Virus record (IMG/VR): IMGVR_UViG_3300020183_000041
Span: 1-64,000 of that record
Reading direction: 5' to 3' (one strand)
Source of the DNA: a virus
DNA: 64,000 nt
The notes below the pieces were generated by a model that was given only the letters and a program-made list of their open reading frames with translations, was not told the DNA's origin and did not search any database. Both the position numbers and the translations under genes were made by a program. Each line of letters opens with the position of its first letter. Position 1 is the stretch's first letter. Positions 16,572 through 25,432 of the stretch are shown here, one piece after another.

Positions 16572-16643
16572 GCCCTTGTAGCTCAGTGGCAGAGCAACCG
16601 CCTTGTAAGCGGTAGGTCGTCAGTTCAATTCTGACCTAGGGCT
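16572..16643 (+). tRNA. tRNA-Thr(UGU)
   Basis: Cloverleaf; ACCGC-CT-TGT-AA-GCGGT; T-loop TTCAATT. Confidence 0.92.
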
Positions 16644-16657
16644 CAAAGGAGGTAAAA

Positions 16658-17071
16658 ATGTACGAATATACTGTAAAAAAATTATATAAAGTTGTAGATG
16701 GTGACACCATTGATGTTGATATTGATCTTGGATTTAATATTTCTTATTATCAAAGAGTAAGATTGGCTGGTATTGATACTCCAGAATCCAGAACAACAGA
16801 TAAAATAGAAAAACAACTTGGTCTTGAAGTTAAAAAGAAACTTGATGAGACATTAAAAAGTGCTACAAAGATTGTTATTAAAACAGAGAAACCCAATTCA
16901 ACCGAAAAATATGGAAGAATTCTTGGATGGATCTTTGTAGATGATAATAAAATTTCAATTAATGAACAATTGATCAAAGATGGTTTTGCTTGGGAATATA
17001 TGGGTGAAACAAAAATTAAAAATTTTGATTTATTAAAGAAAAGAAGAGAAAAAAGTAAGGGAAGTTCTTAA
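16658..17071 (+). CDS. Thermonuclease (SNase) family protein
   Basis: VVDGDTID, RVRLAGIDTPE, KYGRILG, INEQLIKDGFA. Confidence 0.9.
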   Translation: MYEYTVKKLYKVVDGDTIDVDIDLGFNISYYQRVRLAGIDTPESRTTDKIEKQLGLEVKKKLDETLKSATKIVIKTEKPNSTEKYGRILGWIFVDDNKISINEQLIKDGFAWEYMGETKIKNFDLLKKRREKSKGSS

Positions 17072-17084
17072 ACCAACCCAAACC

Positions 17085-17157
17085 CCGAATGTAACTCAAC
17101 TGGCAGAGTAGCGCTTCTATATAGCGTTTGTTGTAGGTTCGAATCCTACCATTTGGA
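17085..17157 (+). tRNA. Atypical tRNA, anticodon UAU (nominally Ile)
   Basis: Acceptor CCGAATG/CATTTGG, D stem ACTC/GAGT, GCGCT-TC-TAT-AT-AGCGT, GTAGG-TTCGAAT-CCTAC; C33 and G3.U70. Confidence 0.7.
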
Positions 17158-17158
17158 C

Positions 17159-17563
17159 ATGTCAAAAGATTGTAAAAAACCATTTCATAAACACCTTATG
17201 CTGCGTGGACACATTGTCGATCCGCCAACAAACACAGAGGAAGTCGTATCGTGGGTAAGAGAGCTTGTTGGTTTTCTTGACATGAAAATAGTGCAAGGAC
17301 CATTTGCAACATACATTGATATTGAAGGTAATAGAGGTCTTACATCAGTCGTCATGATTGAAACATCCCATATTGCATTTCACATCTGGGATGAACAAGA
17401 CCCGGCACTTATCCAACTTGATATTTATACATGCGGTTCTTTAGACATTAATCAGACTTTGGATTTCTTAGAGACTTATTTTAACTTTACTTCATTAGAA
17501 TATATTGTTTATGACAGAGAGCACGGTTTGAATCTTATTACAACAGATGTAAATTCTGATTGA
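17159..17563 (+). CDS. speD: S-adenosylmethionine decarboxylase proenzyme
   Basis: HLMLRG, GLTSVVMIETSHIAFHIWDE, QLDIYTCG. Confidence 0.85.
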   Translation: MSKDCKKPFHKHLMLRGHIVDPPTNTEEVVSWVRELVGFLDMKIVQGPFATYIDIEGNRGLTSVVMIETSHIAFHIWDEQDPALIQLDIYTCGSLDINQTLDFLETYFNFTSLEYIVYDREHGLNLITTDVNSD

Positions 17564-17570
17564 TAAAATA

Positions 17571-17658
17571 GGAAGGATGGCGGAGCGGCTGAACGCACCT
17601 GTCTTGAAAACAGGAATGGGTTTATAGCCCATCGGGGGTTCAAATCCCTCTCCTTCCG
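17571..17658 (+). tRNA. tRNA-Ser(UGA)
   Basis: GGAAGGA/TCCTTCC acceptor, CCTGT-CT-TGA-AA-ACAGG, long variable arm. Confidence 0.95.
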
Positions 17659-17680
17659 CAGAACGTGATAGGATATTACT

Positions 17681-18307
17681 ATGCCAGAATTGAATGCCAA
17701 CATTCCAGCAATTGAGTGCTACGTTCGCGGCAACTACCTGAGAGACCAGATAGATTCTCACAACCAATATTTTCCGTGCATGATTTTTGGTGTTGCGTCA
17801 ATTCAGGGTCGATCTCCGTTGTTTCATTTTTTAATGGAGGACGGAGGAGTGTGGTGGAGAATGCCAATAAGCGCTTTCTGTGAAAGGCCTGATGTGCCAG
17901 AAGTTGATATCCACGACTTAGTACTGTGGAATTCTTTCAGCCCTCATGTCACCGTGACAGAATTTCAGGCGATGCGAAATATGCGGATGACCTATGTAGC
18001 ACGCAGTGGAGAATTTGTTAATGGTAAGTATTTATTCACCTTGGATTGGCATGCGCCAGATGACAACATATTAAATGCTGGTTTTAGCGTTAACCCTGGG
18101 CAACATAAATGCGGTCATGTAATTGTTCGGGATGACGGCAATTTTGCTATTCAACCAAACAACAGGGTACGTCTATTTGACCCGTCCTATACAACGAAAT
18201 CTGGGACCTTAATTGACCGCCTAATTAACACTCGCCAATGGGATGTCGAGGATGCCGCTAAATGGCGCACATCAGACGATGATAGGTATTTCTACGACAT
18301 AGAATAA
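17681..18307 (+). CDS. Conserved phage hypothetical protein
   Basis: 208 aa; LNANIP...YLFTLDW...HKCGH...GNFAIQPNNR. Confidence 0.7.
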   Translation: MPELNANIPAIECYVRGNYLRDQIDSHNQYFPCMIFGVASIQGRSPLFHFLMEDGGVWWRMPISAFCERPDVPEVDIHDLVLWNSFSPHVTVTEFQAMRNMRMTYVARSGEFVNGKYLFTLDWHAPDDNILNAGFSVNPGQHKCGHVIVRDDGNFAIQPNNRVRLFDPSYTTKSGTLIDRLINTRQWDVEDAAKWRTSDDDRYFYDIE

Positions 18308-18342
18308 ACACCAGACGAATATGCCATTATTCGGACAACCAT

Positions 18343-18415
18343 TCCCAGATAGCACAATAGGCAGTGCAATTGACTGTTAATCAATGGGTTGTAGGTTCGA
18401 GTCCTACTCTGGGAG
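18343..18415 (+). tRNA. tRNA-Asn(GUU)
   Basis: TCCCAGA/TCTGGGA acceptor, ATTGA-CT-GTT-AA-TCAAT. Confidence 0.93.
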
Positions 18416-18528
18416 CTTAGCGCTTAACTGCTAAAGCTAATAAAGCAACGAATAATGCTACCATGTATATATTATACTTCTCGCAGAGAAGAATTAAAAT
18501 ATGAAATTTGTAACATGAAAAAATTCAG

Positions 18529-19215
18529 ATGTACGGTGACTATTTAGTAATAGATGACATATTAAAGGTGGCGGACCGAAAGATACTATCCCACCTCACA
18601 TCCTCTCCATCCTTTCCATATCGCTTCTACCCCTCTTATAAAACCCATGAGGGATTATATGAAGGGGGTGGATTTAATAAAATGGAAAACTCGGTATTTT
18701 CCTTTGTTAACCCCATCCAATTAAGTCATCATTTGTATGATTCGACTGAAGAAAAATCATCTCCGCATTTTTCAGAGTTTGTCCCGCTCGTTATGTCACT
18801 TAAGTCATATTTCGGAAACTATTCATTATTAAGAATGAAAGTTAATTGTAGCTATATATTGTCTGAAAGAGATTTAAACCCGCAAAATTTGATGACCTTG
18901 CCGAACCTTTATCCCCCGCAGATTCCTCATGTTGATTTTCAATATGATAACGGTTCAATCCCCAAACATTGGGTATGCGTTTATTACATCAATGACGGCA
19001 ATGCCCCGACATACCTTTTTGACAAAGATATGAGAGTTGTAAAGTCAATTGCACCCAAGTCTGGAAGAGCGTTGCTCTTTGATGGACAAACATATCATGC
19101 TGCTTCCAACCCGCATTTTTCCGATGATAACGCTTTGCGTTATATCGTTAACATTGCGTTGCAACCGGAATTTGCCCCACATGGTTGTAGCAACGCATTA
19201 TCCGAAAATTTTTAA
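18529..19215 (+). CDS. 2OG-Fe(II) oxygenase
   Basis: PHVD, VYYIND, PKSGRALLFDG..YHAA, distal Arg. Confidence 0.8.
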   Translation: MYGDYLVIDDILKVADRKILSHLTSSPSFPYRFYPSYKTHEGLYEGGGFNKMENSVFSFVNPIQLSHHLYDSTEEKSSPHFSEFVPLVMSLKSYFGNYSLLRMKVNCSYILSERDLNPQNLMTLPNLYPPQIPHVDFQYDNGSIPKHWVCVYYINDGNAPTYLFDKDMRVVKSIAPKSGRALLFDGQTYHAASNPHFSDDNALRYIVNIALQPEFAPHGCSNALSENF

Positions 19216-19301
19216 TATTTTTAGAAAATTGAGTACATATTTTTTCTGTGTTACTCGTTATTTTAAGATGTAATCTATTTTGTCTGTTTCGGGGGTCAAT
19301 G

Positions 19302-19399
19302 GCGGGTGTTTCGATGTGCTTCAGCACATTGAACACCCGCAGAGTTGGGTTTGGAACACTTCACGCTTTTAGTGCATCCCCAAACACGCTTGCTATGGT
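19302..19399 (+). promoter_or_regulatory. Cassette 1 hairpin + promoter
   Basis: GCGGGTGTTtCGATGTGC-TTCA-GCACATTGAACACCCGC; GTGCAT 19372; TGC-TATGGT 19394. Confidence 0.8.
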
Positions 19400-19446
19400 G
19401 GTGAGTGTCGGGGCGAAACCGAAGTAGCAACGACAGAGAGGCAGAA

Positions 19447-19725
19447 ATGGAATGGTTCCTTTTGATGCTCGCCCTCACCACAGCCGTTGGGTGTGGGGCG
19501 ATTCTCATCGACGGATGGGATGAAATGTTCCCCCCCCGTCTCGAGCGGCAAGCGCGCAAGGTCGCGAGGGGATGGGATGCCTACGAAAAAGCATCCCAGA
19601 AGCTCGAGGCAATGCTCGATACCGACCGCGAGAATGCCGAGCAGCGTCTCGGGTTCGCGCAGGGCGTTCTCGACTCGGTGCGCCTGCGGCAGTCCCAAGG
19701 CTTAGGAAAGCCTACTCGGTACTGA
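19447..19725 (+). CDS. Cassette 1 cargo: membrane-anchored small protein
   Basis: SD AGAGAGG; MEWFLLMLALTTAVGCGAIL hydrophobic N-terminus, helical tail. Confidence 0.65.
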   Translation: MEWFLLMLALTTAVGCGAILIDGWDEMFPPRLERQARKVARGWDAYEKASQKLEAMLDTDRENAEQRLGFAQGVLDSVRLRQSQGLGKPTRY

Positions 19726-19767
19726 GACCCCCCCCCCCCCCCCCCCCCCCCGTGGCGGGGGGGGGTC
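19726..19767 (+). terminator. Cassette 1 poly-C/poly-G hairpin
   Basis: GA-C24-GTGGC-G9-TC. Confidence 0.5.
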
Positions 19768-19831
19768 CCTCCACCCCATCCATGCCCTGCTATCGCCAGA
19801 TTTAATACAGGCGCTCTTTCACCATACGAAC

Positions 19832-19930
19832 GTGGGTGTGCGTGTGAGGCTTCAGTTCACTTGAACACCCACAGAATAGGGGCGATGCTCTGCTCACTTT
19901 TCGTGCATATCCGAACCCTCATGCTAAGGT
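19832..19930 (+). promoter_or_regulatory. Cassette 2 hairpin + promoter
   Basis: GTGGGTGT...GC-TTCA-GT...ACACCCAC; GTGCAT 19903; TGC-TAAGGT 19925. Confidence 0.8.
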
Positions 19931-19985
19931 AGGTGGTGTCGGGGGAAACGGAAGTACCCCGACCCGACAGAAAGAGAGGTCGCTC

Positions 19986-20267
19986 ATGAGCGACGACCTG
20001 AGTCGGGCAAGGCAGGGTGTCTTCCCCACGGGGATGGCTACCTACTGGCACCACCGCACGGTGGAGCGCATGGACCTTGAGACGGCGGCTGAGGCTGTCT
20101 CACTGGCCATGTCGCTCTCGCTCCTCGACGCTCCGAGCGTCAGGAGTGAGGGCGCTCGCTGGGGCAATCGCTCCCGTGAGACGCTCCGCCAGATGGAGAC
20201 CTACTACGGGGCTTGGCTCCGTGGGGAACTCCATCGGGCGGAGGCCAAGCCTGCCCCCCAGAAGTGA
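19986..20267 (+). CDS. Cassette 2 cargo: hypothetical 93-aa protein
   Basis: SD AGAGAGGT; followed by terminator hairpin. Confidence 0.65.
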   Translation: MSDDLSRARQGVFPTGMATYWHHRTVERMDLETAAEAVSLAMSLSLLDAPSVRSEGARWGNRSRETLRQMETYYGAWLRGELHRAEAKPAPQK

Positions 20268-20271
20268 GCAA

Positions 20272-20295
20272 TGCCCCCGCCTTCGGGCGGGGGCA
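20272..20295 (+). terminator. Cassette 2 terminator hairpin
   Basis: TGCCCCCGCC-TTCG-GGCGGGGGCA. Confidence 0.7.
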
Positions 20296-20365
20296 ACTCC
20301 AATCCATCCGATACGGTCAGCTCTCAAGATTGAATATACGTTCGCAAACGTATCCCATTGCGTGC

Positions 20366-20462
20366 TTGGCGTGCTAGAAAGGCTTCAGCTTTCTAAACGC
20401 CAACTGGTACGGTACTCATCCATTTTCACTTTTAGTGCATCCCCAAACATACTTGCTATAGT
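20366..20462 (+). promoter_or_regulatory. Cassette 3 hairpin + promoter
   Basis: TTGGCGTgcTAGAAAGgC-TTCA-GCTTTCTAaACGCCAA; GTGCAT 20435; TGC-TATAGT 20457. Confidence 0.8.
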
Positions 20463-20469
20463 GGTTGAT

Positions 20470-20657
20470 GTCGGACAGTAGCGCACGCGAGCAGCGTCTC
20501 GGTGTCGGGGAACGCGACCTTTACCCCTGAGGGAACCTAGGGGGTAACGGAAATAACGGTTCCCCTGTAACGCCCGCTCCGCGGGGCGTTGCAGGAAAGA
20601 TGGCGGAGACCCACGTGGGGGTGTGGCGGCTATCTTGCCGCCGCCCCCACGGGGTTT
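20470..20657 (+). ncRNA. Cassette 3 cargo: putative structured small RNA (about 190 nt)
   Basis: Occupies the cargo slot; only a 20-codon ORF fits; several GC-rich stems ending in a long terminal hairpin. Confidence 0.6.
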
Positions 20658-20723
20658 ACTGCAACCCAATCCATGCGGTCTATCTGCAAAGTTGAATATA
20701 TGTTCATTCACTATGCATAAGGC

Positions 20724-20821
20724 GCTGGTGTGCAAGGACGCTTCAGCGAACTGAAACACCAGCCAGCGTGGATACACAGTTCAGACGTTTTTAGTGCATA
20801 GTCGAACTCACTTGGTATAGT
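20724..20821 (+). promoter_or_regulatory. Cassette 4 hairpin + promoter
   Basis: GCTGGTGT...CGC-TTCA-GCG...ACACCAGC; GTGCAT 20794; TGG-TATAGT 20816. Confidence 0.8.
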
Positions 20822-20870
20822 CTTTATTGTCAGTAATAACTAGACCCCACACGGGGAGAATGGACAAGAA

Positions 20871-21110
20871 ATGGCAACAAAGGACTACACGCTCAGCGAA
20901 CTACTAGCGGAGCATTACATAAGCATCGGAGCGAACGGGCACGACATCATCGTCAGCATTCTTGACGACCTGCGTACAGGTGCAGTCATGGAAACGGTTC
21001 GCAACATCGGTGAAAGCGAGACCGCCGCTATCAACGAGCTAACGAGCATCATCGTGAGCATCGTTCAAGGTAACCACCTAGACGACACACGCTCGGGAGA
21101 CGGTTGGTGA
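20871..21110 (+). CDS. Cassette 4 cargo: hypothetical 79-aa protein
   Basis: Lies between promoter and terminator 21112-21152. Confidence 0.7.
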   Translation: MATKDYTLSELLAEHYISIGANGHDIIVSILDDLRTGAVMETVRNIGESETAAINELTSIIVSIVQGNHLDDTRSGDGW

Positions 21111-21111
21111 C

Positions 21112-21152
21112 AGTTCTCCCCCGCCCTGCGCCCCCCGCAGGGCGGGGGAACT
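21112..21152 (+). terminator. Cassette 4 terminator hairpin
   Basis: CCCCCGCCCTGCG / CGCAGGGCGGGGG arms. Confidence 0.7.
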
Positions 21153-21213
21153 TCAACCCATTCGGTACGATCAGTCGAGATGATTGAGCATATATTCTCT
21201 CACCATACAAACA

Positions 21214-21311
21214 CTGGTGTGCAAGGCAGTCTTCAGCGAACTGAAACACCAGCGATTAAGGGGTCACCTAATGTTCTCTTTTAGTGTATGTCTAAACCCA
21301 CATGGTATAGT
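21214..21311 (+). promoter_or_regulatory. Cassette 5 hairpin + promoter
   Basis: CTGGTGT...C-TTCA-G...ACACCAG; GTGTAT 21284; TGG-TATAGT 21306. Confidence 0.8.
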
Positions 21312-21318
21312 GTTTGAC

Positions 21319-21576
21319 ATGGGGAACAACCTGGTGACCGTGAATGCGGAACCGAACCTATACCCCATCAGGCCAATCCTGATGGAGGCTCTCGCAAGGG
21401 ATACCAGCACAGGCTGGACCTTGCTAGACGGGGTAATCGTCATGGAGGAAAGGAATACTCTCCAAGACGAATACGTTCGTCTGGTCGCCGACGAAAAGGC
21501 GACAGGGCAAACCCACGCAGGCAAAAAGCGAGACATTGCTCGCCGCCTGCGGACAATCGCCAGACTTCTGGCGTGA
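21319..21576 (+). CDS. Cassette 5 cargo: leaderless 85-aa protein (paralog of cassette 6)
   Basis: ATG 7 nt after -10; MGNNLVTVNAEP. Confidence 0.75.
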   Translation: MGNNLVTVNAEPNLYPIRPILMEALARDTSTGWTLLDGVIVMEERNTLQDEYVRLVADEKATGQTHAGKKRDIARRLRTIARLLA

Positions 21577-21580
21577 AATC

Positions 21581-21609
21581 GGGCGGGGTCGAAAGACCCC
21601 GCCCTTTTT
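21581..21609 (+). terminator. Cassette 5 intrinsic terminator
   Basis: GGGCGGGGTC-GAAA-GACCCCGCCC-TTTTT. Confidence 0.85.
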
Positions 21610-21674
21610 CTTTGTCTTTGGATGGCGTTCATGCATAGGACACGATTCTTTGAATATATATTTCTCATTACATC

Positions 21675-21773
21675 GCTGGCGTGCAGAGGGTGCTTCAGCG
21701 CACTCAAGCGCCAGCCGTACTGGACTCGTTCCATTTTCACTTTTAGTGCATAGTTGGACTCACTTACTATAGT
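21675..21773 (+). promoter_or_regulatory. Cassette 6 hairpin + promoter
   Basis: GCTGGCGT...GC-TTCA-GC...GCGCCAGC; GTGCAT 21746; TATAGT 21768. Confidence 0.8.
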
Positions 21774-21780
21774 ACTGGTT

Positions 21781-22098
21781 ATGGGAAACAACCTGGTGAC
21801 CGTGAATGCGGAGCCGAAAGAACACAAAAGCATCAATGAGGCACTACTGGCGGCGGTTGAGCGTAGCGGTTGGGTCAAGCCCGACCGCCCGATGTCTCGC
21901 CTTCCAAAAGGCGGGGCAACCGTGGGCGACATCATTACCCTGAATGAGGAGCGCCTAGAAGCGCTTTGGAAACTGGGCAACCTCCGAACGGAGGCGGCAC
22001 GGGGCGCAAAGAATGCCACTCTTCAGGCGAAACTGGTCAGGAGAATAAACACGATTACCCGAATAATCAATGCGTTTGACGACGCACAACGCCGATAG
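21781..22098 (+). CDS. Cassette 6 cargo: leaderless 105-aa protein (paralog of cassette 5)
   Basis: ATG 7 nt after -10; MGNNLVTVNAEP..SGW..EER..RRINTI. Confidence 0.75.
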   Translation: MGNNLVTVNAEPKEHKSINEALLAAVERSGWVKPDRPMSRLPKGGATVGDIITLNEERLEALWKLGNLRTEAARGAKNATLQAKLVRRINTITRIINAFDDAQRR

Positions 22099-22113
22099 TC
22101 TCCCCAGACGGAT

Positions 22114-22147
22114 AACCCCCTCGCCCTGTTGCTCGGGCGAGGGGGTT
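22114..22147 (+). terminator. Cassette 6 terminator hairpin
   Basis: AACCCCCTCGCCC / GGGCGAGGGGGTT arms. Confidence 0.7.
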
Positions 22148-22212
22148 CCGCCAACCCGTCCCGTGCGGTGCAATCAAAAAATTAAATGAATATTCTCTTC
22201 ACTCACTATTCG

Positions 22213-22311
22213 GCTGGTGTGCGAGAGGTGCTTCAGTTCTCTTAAACACCAGCGTTGTTTATAATGGTCTATTTTCTCTTTTAGTGCATAACCTAGGTCA
22301 CTTGTTACTAT
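22213..22311 (+). promoter_or_regulatory. Cassette 7 hairpin + promoter
   Basis: GCTGGTGT...GC-TTCA-GT...ACACCAGC; GTGCAT 22284; TGT-TACTAT 22306. Confidence 0.8.
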
Positions 22312-22348
22312 TAGTCCTGTCAGTAATAACCCCAACCGAAAGGCGATT

Positions 22349-22714
22349 ATGTTTGGAGAAAATGCAAAGAATGAGCAAGTCGGATTAGTGATGGAAATGT
22401 CAGTAGGTGTTACGGAGTATGCCGACAAATTGGCTGCACAATCGACACCGCTTGCACGGCACGCAGCGTTGCAATTACACAATTCCATGCGGTCGGTAGC
22501 GGTTCTCACCGTACTCAACGCAGTGAGGCAGGAACCGATTACGAAAGACTACCTTTATCGCATTGTGTTCATTTTCCAAGACATTCTCAAGAATGTCTTG
22601 GAATACGAAAATGCAGGTCTGATTGTCGAAGTCGACAACCTTGACAACGAAGATGTGAAGATGAGCGACTTTCTTTCGGCACTGATGTACGAATTCACCG
22701 AATTGATGGATTGA
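22349..22714 (+). CDS. Cassette 7 cargo: hypothetical 121-aa protein
   Basis: SD GAAAGG; followed by terminator. Confidence 0.7.
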   Translation: MFGENAKNEQVGLVMEMSVGVTEYADKLAAQSTPLARHAALQLHNSMRSVAVLTVLNAVRQEPITKDYLYRIVFIFQDILKNVLEYENAGLIVEVDNLDNEDVKMSDFLSALMYEFTELMD

Positions 22715-22746
22715 AAAATGGGGGGCTTCGGCCCCCCATTTTTTTT
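22714..22746 (+). terminator. Cassette 7 intrinsic terminator
   Basis: ATGGGGGGC-TTCG-GCCCCCCAT then T tract. Confidence 0.85.
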
Positions 22747-22814
22747 GTCTTGATGAATGGTGTTCATCAACGGCATGGCTTTCTTGAGTATGTATTCTTT
22801 CAATACCTGGATGT

Positions 22815-22912
22815 GCTGGTGTGCGAGGAAGCTTCAGCTGCCTTAAACACCAGCGCTGTTAGGGGGTAGGTGTTCTTATTTTTAGTGAATAGCCAAGGTC
22901 ACTTGTTATAGT
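22815..22912 (+). promoter_or_regulatory. Cassette 8 hairpin + promoter
   Basis: GCTGGTGT...AGC-TTCA-GCT...ACACCAGC; GTGAAT 22885; TGT-TATAGT 22907. Confidence 0.8.
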
Positions 22913-22919
22913 GTTTCAC

Positions 22920-23243
22920 ATGAGCGACAAGCCCAAGGTGACTGCTAAGGCAGAACCGAACCGCAAGGTGAACCTTGCGGAACTGCAAGGAAAGATTGCC
23001 AAGAAAGGCAAGCCCCCGTACCGTGACCCTGCGTTGGCGCAAGACCTGCTGACTCTTGGTGATGGCGAGGCAATCTTGTGGGTTCAGGCAACCGTGAACG
23101 TCACGGGAACCGACCCCAAGGCAATCAACGCCGAAAAGATGAAGTGGCGCCAACGTGCTATTTCGGTTGCCGAGGGTGTGAACCTCAAGGTTCAGATCAA
23201 CTGGTCAACCAATGGCGAGATGTACATCTCGCTCAAGAAGTAA
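22920..23243 (+). CDS. Cassette 8 cargo: leaderless basic protein, paralog family A
   Basis: ATG 7 nt after -10; KVNLAELQGKIAKKGKPPYRD...WRQRAISVA. Confidence 0.8.
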   Translation: MSDKPKVTAKAEPNRKVNLAELQGKIAKKGKPPYRDPALAQDLLTLGDGEAILWVQATVNVTGTDPKAINAEKMKWRQRAISVAEGVNLKVQINWSTNGEMYISLKK

Positions 23244-23257
23244 AAGAAAGGAAAAAG

Positions 23258-23289
23258 AAAAGGGAACCCGAAAGGGTTCCCTTTTTTTT
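23258..23289 (+). terminator. Cassette 8 intrinsic terminator
   Basis: AGGGAACCC-GAAA-GGGTTCCCT plus T tract; same as cassette 10 terminator. Confidence 0.85.
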
Positions 23290-23298
23290 GCCCAAAGT

Positions 23299-23340
23299 CG
23301 CTGGCGTTCTGGTCGCGCTAAAGCGCTTTGAACGCCAGCG
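23299..23340 (+). repeat. Type II (TAAA-loop) hairpin A
   Basis: CGCTGGCGTTC..GCGC-TAAA-GCGC..GAACGCCAGCG. Confidence 0.8.
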
Positions 23341-23425
23341 CTGTTGGACAAACCTTTGGTCTCTCTTTATTACACAATTACTAATTCCTTGTAATAATTT
23401 AATATTACTCACAATATGTAATCGG

Positions 23426-23524
23426 GCTGGCGTGCGAGCGTGTCTTCAGCGCGCTTAAACGCCAGCGGAATCGTACTCATCTATTCTTCATTTTTAGTGC
23501 ATTTCCAAACCCGCTGGGTATAGT
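23426..23524 (+). promoter_or_regulatory. Cassette 9 hairpin + promoter
   Basis: GCTGGCGT...C-TTCA-G...ACGCCAGC; GTGCAT 23497; TATAGT 23519. Confidence 0.8.
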
Positions 23525-23531
23525 TCTAGTC

Positions 23532-23858
23532 GTGGCAACACAACAGCCGACCGCTAAGGCGGAGGCAAACCGTAAGGTGAACCTGAAAGACCTGCAAGGC
23601 AGTTTGTCTAAGAAGGGCAAACCTCCCTATCAGGACAAGGCACTAGCGGCAGACATTCTGTCGCTGGACCCAAACGACGCTAACGACGCATTCGTTTGGT
23701 CAAAGGCGGCGGTCGTTCTGACGGGAGACCCAAAGAAGGACAACGCCAACAAAATGCTGTGGAGACAGCGCGCCATTTCGGTTGCAAAGGCTACGGGTAT
23801 CGTAATCCGTATTCAATGGACCAATAATGGAGAAATGGTTATTTCACGTAAGGGGTGA
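23532..23858 (+). CDS. Cassette 9 cargo: leaderless basic protein, paralog family A
   Basis: GTG 7 nt after -10; KVNLKDLQGSLSKKGKPPYQD...WRQRAISVA. Confidence 0.8.
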   Translation: MATQQPTAKAEANRKVNLKDLQGSLSKKGKPPYQDKALAADILSLDPNDANDAFVWSKAAVVLTGDPKKDNANKMLWRQRAISVAKATGIVIRIQWTNNGEMVISRKG

Positions 23859-23872
23859 AATAATCAAAAAAG

Positions 23873-23903
23873 AAAGGACCGCCTTCGGGCGGTCCTTTTT
23901 TTT
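23873..23903 (+). terminator. Cassette 9 intrinsic terminator
   Basis: AGGACCGCC-TTCG-GGCGGTCCT plus T tract. Confidence 0.85.
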
Positions 23904-23913
23904 GCCCAAAGTT

Positions 23914-23953
23914 GCTGGTGTTCTGGTCGCGCTAAAGCGCTTTGAACACCAGT
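23914..23953 (+). repeat. Type II (TAAA-loop) hairpin B
   Basis: GCTGGTGTTC..GCGC-TAAA-GCGC..GAACACCAGT. Confidence 0.8.
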
Positions 23954-24040
23954 TTGTTTGTCTTCAAGTTGGGGTATGGTTTATTACAAATTTACAATTT
24001 ACATGTAATAAATTACATGATGTTTCAAATCCTAATTCGA

Positions 24041-24137
24041 TTGGCGTGCATGGAGGCTTCAGCTCCATTGTGCGCCAACCAAATTGGACTCTAATGGTTA
24101 TTATTTTTAGTGCATATCTGGGGTCACTTGTTAGAGT
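24041..24137 (+). promoter_or_regulatory. Cassette 10 hairpin + promoter
   Basis: TTGGCGTgCATGGAGgC-TTCA-GCTCCATtGtGCGCCAA; GTGCAT 24110; TGT-TAGAGT 24132. Confidence 0.8.
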
Positions 24138-24144
24138 AGTACCC

Positions 24145-24519
24145 GTGAGCACAAACAAGGTGACCGCTAATGCGGAACCAAAGAATACTCATGGCAATAC
24201 CCCGAATGTCCGAGTCAACCTTTCCCAAATGGCTGGCAAACTTTCCCGCAAAGGAAAGCCTGCATACAAGGATGAGGCATTGGCAAAGGATATTCTGTCG
24301 CTAGACCCGACCGACCCCAATGATGCTTTCACCTGGGGAAAAGCAAAGGTTTCCCTTGTGGATGCCAACGGCGAGTCCCGTGACGAAGCCCAAATCAATA
24401 AGGAAAAAATGAAGCACCGCCAGCGAGCATTTTCGGTCGCAAAGCAGTTGCAAATCGAAATCCGTGTGATTTGGATGGTCGATGGTCAAATGGTCATCGC
24501 ACTCAAAAACGACAAGTAA
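24145..24519 (+). CDS. Cassette 10 cargo: leaderless basic protein, paralog family A
   Basis: GTG 7 nt after -10; RVNLSQMAGKLSRKGKPAYKD...HRQRAFSVA. Confidence 0.8.
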   Translation: MSTNKVTANAEPKNTHGNTPNVRVNLSQMAGKLSRKGKPAYKDEALAKDILSLDPTDPNDAFTWGKAKVSLVDANGESRDEAQINKEKMKHRQRAFSVAKQLQIEIRVIWMVDGQMVIALKNDK

Positions 24520-24534
24520 TTAGAAAGGAAAAAG

Positions 24535-24567
24535 AAAAGGGAACCCGAAAGGGTTCCCTTTTTTTTT
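24535..24567 (+). terminator. Cassette 10 intrinsic terminator
   Basis: AGGGAACCC-GAAA-GGGTTCCCT plus T tract. Confidence 0.85.
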
Positions 24568-24578
24568 GTCTAAAGTCG

Positions 24579-24616
24579 TTGGCGTGCGGTCGGCGCTAAA
24601 GCGCCTTGCACGCCAA
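24579..24616 (+). repeat. Type II (TAAA-loop) hairpin C
   Basis: TTGGCGTGC..GGCGC-TAAA-GCGCC..GCACGCCAA. Confidence 0.8.
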
Positions 24617-24705
24617 TTAGTTTTAGAATTATCTTTTGCAAAACTTTAATATTTATTCAAATTACAATTAATAATGTAAAGACTAATTAAGTTTTTCAAT
24701 ATACG

Positions 24706-24747
24706 ATGGTGTTCAAACGATAACTTTATTTATCGTTTGAACACCAT
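24706..24747. repeat. Perfect 18-bp inverted repeat
   Basis: ATGGTGTTCAAACGATAA-CTTTAT-TTATCGTTTGAACACCAT. Confidence 0.9.
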
Positions 24748-25312
24748 TTGGATTTGAATTATTATTATCTATACTTTAGCACACTGTCAAATCAGATTCA
24801 CTCTTTGTTACACAAAAGTTACAATTCTAATTAGATTCACTATTAGGCCGCCGATACCCTTGGGATAGACCTGTGATAACTATGATCTTTCCCCCCGCTT
24901 TCTACACTACAATTTTGCCGGTCTTTAGGCAACAGTTTCACCATAAGAATACCCCTAGAGAGTATTCACCATTATAAACCTCAAATTACAGCGGGGTAAG
25001 TCTGTAACTATCTATACCAGAGTCTGGAGTAGAATAAATACAATTAAATTCATGATTAGGTCCATAATTAGATTCGTAATTAAATTTGTAGTCGCCAATT
25101 ATTTACCTTAACGCAAAATTCGGCCTTCACAATATATGAGCATCAAAAATATATTAAAATTCGGGTTAGATATGTCTATATTCTCCTCTAGAGATAGAGA
25201 GTAGATAGAAAGCAAACAAATGTTCGCTTTTTTGATAGAAAATGATAGCATTTTGCTATATTTTTACTATAAATATTATAATTTTCTTTATTTTTATGCT
25301 GTTTTTAGGCAC

Positions 25313-25356
25313 AAAAAAAAGGCTTAAGAATAAGTTTTACCTTACTCTTAAGCCTT
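25313..25356 (-). terminator. Probable terminator of the long leftward gene block
   Basis: AAGGCTTAAGA...TCTTAAGCCTT with A8 on the left (U tract on minus strand). Confidence 0.6.
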
Positions 25357-25432
25357 AAATTTGGGCACGCACACCCATATAAATATAATAAATATATTTA
25401 TAGTTGTGTACGCTTCACTTGCTTTTGATTAG

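Follow-up and report, generated by a model that had tools for sequence, protein, structure and literature searches.

The first 64 kb of the IMG/VR virus record IMGVR_UViG_3300020183_000041 (64,000 nucleotides, referred to below as the window, of a record of 85,125 bp that is rated 82% complete) contain an island of ten one-gene cassettes on the plus strand, in which ten hairpins with a CTTCAG tip (type A, positions 19302-24079) stand at a fixed distance before the cassette promoters. Comparison of 25 type A copies, ten from the window and 15 from the related phages L040 and L041, shows that these predicted hairpins are selected to pair in their outer and inner stems, alongside a small set of fixed letters. 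Judged by its organization, the whole array is a mobile cassette system resembling the promoter-early stem-loop (PeSL) cassettes, with the TTCA hairpin as an extra, third element and not as the PeSL stem-loop. The reading we favor, to which we give a probability of about 0.4, is that the hairpin may serve as a structured upstream promoter element of such a PeSL-like cassette, with a role at the level of DNA and a putative protein that reads it. A DNA-level role is favored because it alone accounts for both the pairing and a fixed, phase-preserving distance to the promoter. An earlier reading made from the letters of the window alone (the sequence-only reading) had drawn attention to the hairpins; it missed the PeSL-like nature of the array, the tie of the hairpin to the promoter box rather than to the terminator, and the variable tip in relatives.

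Evidence that the pairing itself is under selection comes from arm exchange and from alignment. When the 3′ inner arms were swapped among the 25 copies, with close counterparts left out, the native hairpins had a Watson-Crick score of 4.44 against 2.89 for the swapped ones and a fold of -7.64 against -4.32 kcal/mol, and the native mean was reached in 0 of 5000 permutations. A MAFFT alignment of the same copies, scored against a structure that we assigned, has 82.0% of its cells paired against 74.2 +/- 1.2 after shuffling, 47 cells changed on both sides against 20.1 +/- 4.1, and a covariation score of 0.316 against 0.199 (0/500 in each case), in a pair-counting test in which related sequences can outscore shuffles without structure. 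Slid-partner controls gave 37-45% paired. Outer-arm pairs switch between C-G and U-A (14/9), U-A and G-C (19/4), and U-A and C-G (10/8); the inner stems vary in length and are out of register in the alignment. In a second class of hairpin described below (type B), 14 pairs are predicted, of which four carry compensatory changes and none is broken. The compensatory changes claimed by the sequence-only reading thus survive the larger alignment that it had itself proposed as a test (0/5000 and 0/500, with 4/14 pairs in type B). The arms it had quoted are likewise present, the outer ones being GCGGGTGTT/AACACCCGC, GTGGGTGT/ACACCCAC, TTGGCGT/ACGCCAA, GCTGGTGT/ACACCAGC, and GCTGGCGT/GCGCCAGC, and the inner ones CGATGTGC/GCACATTG, TAGAAAG/CTTTCTA, and ATGGAG/CTCCAT.

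All ten type A hairpins of the window lie on the plus strand, and each plus-strand fold was compared with 200 shuffles. None of the shuffles was as good as hairpin 1 (GCGGGTGTT..CTTCAG..AACACCCGC; 19302-19340, with a GG..CC core at 19305-19337 and a dG of -28.8), hairpin 4 (20724-20763, core 20727-20760; a natural deletion variant has its 13-nt crossover in the 5′ arm of this copy), hairpin 8 (22815-22854, core 22818-22851), or hairpin 9 (23426-23466, core 23429-23463). One of 200 was as good as hairpin 2 (19832-19872, core 19835-19869), hairpin 7 (22213-22253, core 22216-22250), and hairpin 10 (24040-24079, core 24043-24076), two of 200 equaled hairpin 3 (20365-20404, core 20368-20401), and three of 200 hairpin 6 (21675-21715, core 21678-21712). 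Hairpin 5 (21213-21253, core 21216-21250), with its degenerate inner stem, was equaled by 29 of 200. This copy is not distinguishable from chance; the other nine beat nearly all shuffles (0-3/200).

The type A stem is 17-19 bp long and carries a 4-nt tip and a GC/AA internal loop. Its outer part, GGnG/CnCC, is invariant, with three G-C pairs kept in 25 of 25 copies. By our own reading of the alignments, GC stands opposite AA in about six to seven of the ten window copies, in agreement with the recurring mismatch described earlier. The C-TTCA-G loop, which had been called invariant, is so in all ten window copies but not beyond them, since the 15 tips of the relatives are CTTCAG in seven cases, CTTAAG in six, CTTTAG in one, and GTTTAG in one. 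Over all copies the tip is summarized as CTTNAG, and its T and its A (the latter at tip position 4) are among the invariant letters. No type A hairpin has a T run, and the terminator-like sites sit at other coordinates. A loose hairpin pattern had no match outside the island in the three phage records (G000, G001, and G002), where the reversed control pattern had 0, 1, and 0 matches. Among 24 listed Rfam matches, none reached the gathering score and none fell on a type A hairpin. Readings of CTTCAG as an anticodon-loop mimic or a restriction site were considered and dropped.

Four further hairpins with the same outer arms, three of type B and one of type C, follow on the plus strand at 23300-24747. 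Those of type B, which have a GCGCTAAAGCGC core, come after the terminators of genes 8-10: the first (23300-23339) begins about 10 nt after the gene 8 terminator and has a promoter-like TTTATTACAC-N17-AATAAT 48 nt past its tip, the second (23914-23953) follows gene 9, and the third (24578-24617) follows gene 10. Type C (24706-24747, TGGTGTTC..GAACACCA) is a perfect 18-bp palindrome with the same outer arm and is the last element of the array. The idea that type B is an inverted type A, CTAAAG being the reverse complement of CTTTAG, was rejected because both types have their longer side 5′ on the plus strand.

The second line of evidence is the distance between hairpin and promoter. Each cassette opens with a GC-rich terminator, which has a T run. 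A partly conserved spacer leads from it to the hairpin, about 28 nt separate the hairpin from the box TTTTAGTGCAT, and the box is followed after 16 nt by TATAGT (often with TGn before it) and then by the gene. The promoters lie on the plus strand at 19367-19399 (promoter 1, TTTTAGTGCAT-N16-TATGGT), 19898-19930 (promoter 2), 20430-20462 (promoter 3, whose cargo has no open reading frame, or ORF, of at least 50 aa), 20789-20821 (promoter 4), 21279-21311 (promoter 5), 21741-21773 (promoter 6), 22279-22311 (promoter 7), 22880-22912 (promoter 8), 23492-23524 (promoter 9), and 24105-24137 (promoter 10). In five of the ten cassettes (5, with ATG; 6; 8; 9 and 10, both with GTG) the ATG or GTG start codon stands exactly 7 nt after the -10 box, so that their messages are predicted to be leaderless. 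A canonical sigma-70 scan did not pick up the module promoters, whose -35 region is not TTGACA-like.

The box reads TTTAGTGCAT in the window and ATTGAATACAT in the relatives, aligned as TTKARTRCAY. It begins 49 nt past the tip in nine of the ten window type A copies and 48 nt past it in the remaining one, and 48-51 nt past it in 14 of the 15 copies of the relatives; the exception, copy F5 at 60 nt, has an 11-nt insertion in the alignment, which is one helical turn. Across types A, B, and C in the three phages, the box begins 47-51 nt past the tip in 32 of 33 hairpins and matches TTKARTRCAY in at least eight of ten letters in 31 of 33. The 32 include all eight type B and C hairpins, each with a box-like sequence 47-51 nt downstream (7-10/10 matches) and several also with a -10-like hexamer. 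The distance from the terminator T run to the tip, by contrast, varies from 34 to 157 nt. Since the tip-to-box distance is steady and the tip-to-terminator distance is variable, the unit that stays constant is the hairpin together with its promoter. If transcription is assumed to start 7 nt after TATAGT, the center of the hairpin lies at about -86. The sequence-only reading had described hairpins after a terminator and at a fixed distance, near -86, before the promoter, and this description holds: all ten cores were located, 48-49 nt from the box.

Further features accompany the intergenic segments. A second box-like motif (TTGAATATAT; TTGAGTATGC in L040) stands 43-53 nt before the tip in cassettes 2-8, at window positions 19801, 20330, 20692, 21184, 21650, 22182, and 22784. 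Its candidacy as a second promoter upstream of the hairpin was rejected, as no -10 box lies at a matching distance. In L041, modules G2-G5 do not have the motif. The gene 1 terminator (window 19726-19767) has a run of about 26 C followed by G runs, and read mapping breaks there.

The two strands do not fold equally well. With RNA parameters the plus strand has the lower fold energy in 22 of 25 type A copies, the mean difference being 3.6 kcal/mol, and DNA parameters give 18 of 25, which supports the folded plus strand proposed earlier; for types B and C together the counts are 8/8 with RNA and 3/8 with DNA parameters. With G.T and A.C scored alike, the 25 hairpins contain 45 G.T and 18 A.C. 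Counted over alignment cells the figures are 43 and 13, so the G.T excess on the plus strand asserted by the sequence-only reading stands as a count; however, column shuffles predict 56 against 31, a consequence of G-rich 5′ arms and T-rich 3′ arms, and the argument is weaker than had been thought. Relative to expectation, A.C is depleted to 0.42 and G.T to 0.77 (rough binomial p ~0.03, the cells not being independent). G.U is concentrated at three stem positions (13, 9, and 7 of 25), and no inner position has more than two A.C. We regard the strand bias of these predicted folds as real, with composition explaining much of the G.T excess and a modest signal beyond it.

Under the favored reading, the hairpin would be the upstream part of a self-contained unit (the hairpin and then, after about 28 nt, TTKARTRCAY, 16 nt, TATAGT, 7 nt, start codon), and this promoter unit would join with a strong terminator to bracket each small island gene. 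A putative protein would read the hairpin by both structure and sequence, on DNA, as an extruded hairpin or cruciform whose extrusion would be favored by the negative supercoiling behind strong promoters, and this would tune, time, or insulate the firing of the promoter that lies downstream at a fixed distance. A side effect of the shared arms and of a palindrome prone to stalling would be cassette gain and loss at the 5′ edge of the hairpin. A bolder version, which seems unlikely to us, makes the hairpins host-polymerase counterparts of the N4 hairpin promoters: a non-template hairpin, extruded at one fixed distance upstream by the negative supercoiling that an active promoter leaves behind it, would be read at its invariant letters and tip by a small phage protein, each cassette would sense and set its own firing and be topologically insulated, and the unique inner stems would prevent cross-pairing.

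Several points weigh against a promoter element read on DNA. No protein that reads the hairpin was found among the families and folds searched. Functional cruciforms are rare, and a cruciform needs both strands folded, which predicts no strand bias; a G.T-tolerant fold biased to the plus strand is what an RNA hairpin would show. About nine of the 25 inner stems (W2, W4, W5, W7, F4, F6, G3, G6, and G7) are no better than chimeras, and RNAalifold recovers only 7 outer pairs from the 25-copy alignment (covariation term -0.76). Nor are the 25 copies, drawn from three related phages, independent of each other. With respect to spacing, the box was taken as the best match at offsets 40-69 with ties resolved towards 49, a procedure that favors the expected value. 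The spacer between hairpin and box is partly conserved, and the fixed distance could reflect a constraint on this spacer rather than on the hairpin; among the relatives, the spacing also varies by +/-2 nt.

The main alternative, which we hold to be only a little less probable than the favored reading, is a hairpin that acts as RNA on sense transcripts. It would be an RNase III-type processing site, a protective 5′ or 3′ end, or the site of an RNA-binding protein, and would separate the messages of neighboring cassettes; the RNA would be supplied by terminator read-through, by the upstream operon in the case of copy 1, or by the promoter-like site after type B. The better folding of the sense strand in 22 of 25 copies is in its favor, and it explains the G.U tolerance best. 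Furthermore, a conserved tip with free but paired stems is typical of protein-bound RNA hairpins, the promoter-like sites 48 nt past type B would place hairpins 9 and 10 about 20 nt into a transcript, and no terminator lies between the upstream 2-oxoglutarate (2OG) oxygenase gene and hairpin 1. However, an RNA role leaves unexplained why the box keeps to 47-51 nt (32/33) when the terminator lies at anything from 34 to 157 nt. The terminators before copies 2-10 look strong, and little RNA is expected at the hairpin; a leadered transcript would not serve leaderless genes; no tip is a stable UUCG; and there is no Rfam match at the type A hairpins and no RNase III gene in the three phages.

If the hairpin were instead a plain duplex operator, which we think improbable, a dimeric regulator on the outer arms (GGYGT..ACRCC, about three helical turns apart) would activate or shut off the promoter, and the inner complementarity would be a by-product, for example of template switching in quasi-palindromes. 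Such a regulator would suit the invariance of GGnG/CnCC in 25/25 copies, the restriction of the sites to the island, and a position that is fixed relative to the promoter even through one 11-nt change. The phiC31 repressor sites and phi29 p4 offer parallels on ordinary B-DNA. For p4, the bound sequence is CTTTTT-15 bp-AAAATG, and few bases in its outer repeats are read (PMC3100819). However, half-sites that are read independently should not covary, and here both outer and inner stems do. A duplex operator also fails to explain the strand bias and the conserved left-right asymmetry (GC opposite AA and a longer 5′ side), and no regulator gene was identified among the ORFs scanned.

The content of the array changes in ways that touch the hairpins. 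One lake contig (depth 3.3) joins position 20724 to 21214 and drops cassette 4, which another contig of the same run retains; the joint lies in a 13-nt identity of the 5′ arm, despite a 23-nt identity available in the 3′ half. L041 is without one cassette of L040, and a hybrid module changes partner just 5′ of the hairpin. Of the two mapped breaks, one thus falls in the 5′ arm and the other just ahead of the hairpin, and they do not share a single base. In a third module pair similarity begins at about the hairpin, and the break is unmappable since the two hairpins differ. Modules are closer to each other within one genome than to their counterparts in the other genome, which points to ongoing exchange between modules. 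A lake contig of 1308 nt (1278 + 30; window 23282-24559) reads as a 1278-nt circle or a tandem copy of cassettes 9-10; its joint falls in a terminator segment shared by genes 8 and 10 and may be an assembly artefact or ordinary homologous exchange. Only those parts of the array with contig cover were interpreted.

These changes are among the reasons to consider a recombination site, in which the folded single strand would be the substrate of a dedicated cassette recombinase, the attC-like logic put forward by the sequence-only reading. The imperfect palindrome, conserved outer boxes, variable paired center, fixed internal mismatch, and strand bias all agree with it, as do the differing cassette content of the three phages, the two breaks at or just before the 5′ arm, the third module pair that is similar from about the hairpin on, and the circle-like contig. 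Even so, we hold it to be very unlikely. The breaks do not fall at one base, each cassette comes with a promoter of its own, the joint of the circle-like contig is in a shared terminator segment where an artefact or homologous exchange is possible, and within-genome likeness of modules is expected of general recombination. Moreover, no Phage_integrase (PF00589), Resolvase, or Y1 transposase was found in G000, G001 (96% complete), or G002, in searches whose controls were positive in 14, 12, and 6 of 14 genomes, and the three records likewise gave no HUH nuclease and no serine or tyrosine recombinase; sigma-70 region 2 and RNase III had no match in them either.

That the hairpin is itself the promoter of a phage RNA polymerase, the N4-like logic that had also been suggested, is barely credible: conserved and free-but-paired stem letters resemble those of N4 early promoters (PMC4496689), but a stem of 17-19 bp with a 4-nt tip contrasts with the 5-7 bp and 3 nt of N4, the center lies at about -86 and not at -11, the non-template strand folds better, a host-type -10 box stands 75 nt downstream with start codons 7 nt past it, the 3051-aa ORF matches tape measure families, and T7-type RNA polymerase (PF00940) had no match in the three records in a search that was positive in no control genome, G000 being 82% complete.

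A protein able to read the hairpin was also sought in the cargo. The nine cargo proteins belong to no convincing Pfam or PHROG family, with weak matches only, and no named DNA-binding family was found among these nine and 31 other ORFs scanned. The only cargo common to the three arrays is a small basic protein family (isoelectric point ~10, 105-125 aa, with KVNL..KRGKPPY..KMKYRNRA motifs); all other cargo is private to one phage. The family has two to three copies per phage (window 22920-24519, with genes at 22920-23243, 23532-23858, and 24145-24519; L040 9450-10945; L041 9176-10172), and every full-length copy is followed by a type B hairpin, which is not the case for a weak third match at L040 9450-9689. 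A model of the basic protein has a mean predicted local distance difference test (pLDDT) score of 81.2 and no recognizable fold: Foldseek against the PDB gave a best E of 0.3, and a wide VIA-align search a best Z of 5.4, below the noise level of the tool. This family is our candidate for the hairpin reader, offered as a guess.

Other cargo has features of its own. Cassette 3 (window 20463-20690) has a full hairpin, promoter, and terminator and no ORF of at least 50 aa; its cargo is rich in stems and has no Rfam match, and may be a small RNA. Five leaderless genes from at least two unrelated families share an N-terminal (V/P)T(V/A)(N/K)AE(P/A) (window 21319-21360, 21781-21820, 22920-22965, 23532-23570, and 24145-24185), and the DNA of this motif, which lies close to where the message begins (its 5′ end), resembles a small stem-loop, CYGC-TAAK-GCRG.

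The relatives were reached through the basic protein. The paralogues in cassettes 8-10 have 35 homologues in metagenomes, several of whose gene calls extend upstream through the promoter and show the TATAGT-plus-7 geometry, and a profile of these homologues led to two IMG/VR phages, L040 (a 100-kb record, 96% complete) and L041 (a 61-kb record). In each of them a GC-richer island (43-49%) follows a tRNA gene at the corresponding place, with seven type A hairpins in L040, eight in L041, and two type B hairpins in each. Other searches were less productive. The island had no blastn match among 50,697 phage records, and genome contigs searched with the basic protein family gave 0 loci. In IMG/VR, a strict hairpin pattern gave 0 matches, a promoter-pattern scan gave 15 single matches (about chance level by a rough estimate), and searches with the three paralogues of cassettes 8-10 and with the 2OG oxygenase gave 0 loci each. 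An IMG/VR scan for AYATTGAATACATAT gave 119 loci, with a single match per listed locus and none with a hairpin by regular expression, and a type B scan returned only L040 and L041. A hairpin scan of metagenomes gave 24 loci, 23 of which are one unrelated high-GC coding repeat without a hairpin; the only other, L023, is the present phage.

The carrier reads as an actinophage-like siphovirus with a putatively early-type island. The window encodes a portal, a class II ribonucleotide reductase, a DnaE-type polymerase, and seven tRNAs, and its portal shares 45% identity with those of 130-kb Streptomyces siphoviruses. Together with this match, the TATAGT-plus-7 geometry, GTG starts, and weak -35 region presumably fit an actinobacterial host. 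The phage is present in at least 24 lake-water DNA runs, with no RNA run among the holders listed. Its genome has a G+C content of about 33%, as opposed to 46-55% in the stretch at 18-24 kb, and the contrast shown by the island (window 18000-24800) recurs at 6000-11000 in L040 and 5500-10000 in L041, with 43-49% against 32-35%. Possible causes are that the island is foreign, that it escapes AT-targeting silencers, or that gene conversion is biased in an array that recombines. Just upstream of the array, window 16572-18416 holds four tRNA genes (Thr, Ile, Ser, and Asn) and among them a nuclease, an S-adenosylmethionine (SAM)-decarboxylase-like ORF, a PHROG 3704 protein, and a 2OG-Fe(II) oxygenase; the array begins after tRNA-Asn in all three phages. 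On the other side, the ~650 nt past the last hairpin (window 24760-25400) have no plus-strand ORF of at least 40 aa and one 47-aa minus-strand ORF, and mark the switch from plus-strand to minus-strand genes; within them, 25215-25361 is 77% identical to L040 11767-11913.

Phages are known to keep and exchange small early genes in cassettes bounded by a terminator and a promoter, and many of these genes counter host defences. Here the cassette would have a third part, which must fold, has few fixed letters, and keeps a set distance from the promoter. Should it act on DNA, it would be one of few upstream promoter elements that depend on structure and serve a host polymerase, and it could provide a compact natural insulator for synthetic gene arrays. 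Should it act on RNA, it would point to a new pair of protein and hairpin in freshwater actinobacterial phages, about whose gene control little is known. Mutants that discriminate between the strands (G.T to A.C) and mutants that shift the phase make the question directly testable.

Within the limited reach of our literature search, no description of such a hairpin-promoter unit was found, and the unit is best placed by its likeness to known systems. Of the three mechanisms that the sequence-only reading had named, attC-like, N4-like, and RNase III-like, the hairpins do not clearly belong to any as a family. RNase III sites of the T7 and SP82 type have an irregular stem, roughly two helical turns long and interrupted by an internal loop; the 17-19 pairs seen here, with their GC/AA loop, are somewhat short by comparison. 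The attC sites of integrons are imperfect palindromes with conserved outer boxes, a variable paired center, fixed unpaired bases, and a one-strand bias, and lie between mobile cassettes. The present hairpins share the conserved outer boxes, variable paired center, unpaired bases, and strand bias, but come with no integrase, have promoters and terminators of their own in each cassette, do not break at one base, and are locked to a promoter.

The virion RNA polymerase of N4 uses early promoters that are DNA hairpins extruded by supercoiling, with some conserved letters and others that need only pair; they are a precedent for a phage promoter hairpin that is read as DNA (PMC4496689). They differ from the present element in their center (-11 instead of -86), their smaller size, the strand that folds, and their virion RNA polymerase, no counterpart of which was found in the searches made. 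Inverted repeats are also conserved at phiC31 promoters, and the p4 site of phi29 lies at -82. The phi29 p4 sites (PMC3100819) and the phiC31 repeats resemble our element as widely spaced inverted repeats upstream of phage promoters, to which a phage regulator binds; unlike it, they are read in duplex DNA, with a center that does not covary. Cluster O mycobacteriophages carry a comparable many-copy dyad repeat, TGTTCGG-NNN-CCGAACA, in actinophages with leaderless SigA-type promoters, but these 17-bp palindromes are short, genome-wide, mostly away from promoters, and unlinked to rearrangements (PMC4351075).

The closest system is that of the PeSL cassettes of T4-type phages, in which small orphan genes lie between a terminator stem-loop and a host-type promoter (PMC2839356, PMC4122927). 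As there, small genes are boxed in by a terminator and a strong host-type promoter (ten units here, with TGn-TATAGT), and intergenic repeats are the exchange points among related phages, with small circles as a possibility in PeSL. Unlike the T4-like myoviruses, the carrier here is an actinophage-like siphovirus with leaderless genes. The stem-loop of PeSL is the terminator, whereas the present array has a distinct GC-rich hairpin, with a T run, for termination, and the hairpin that is added is tied to a box at 47-51 nt and has covarying stems and invariant letters.

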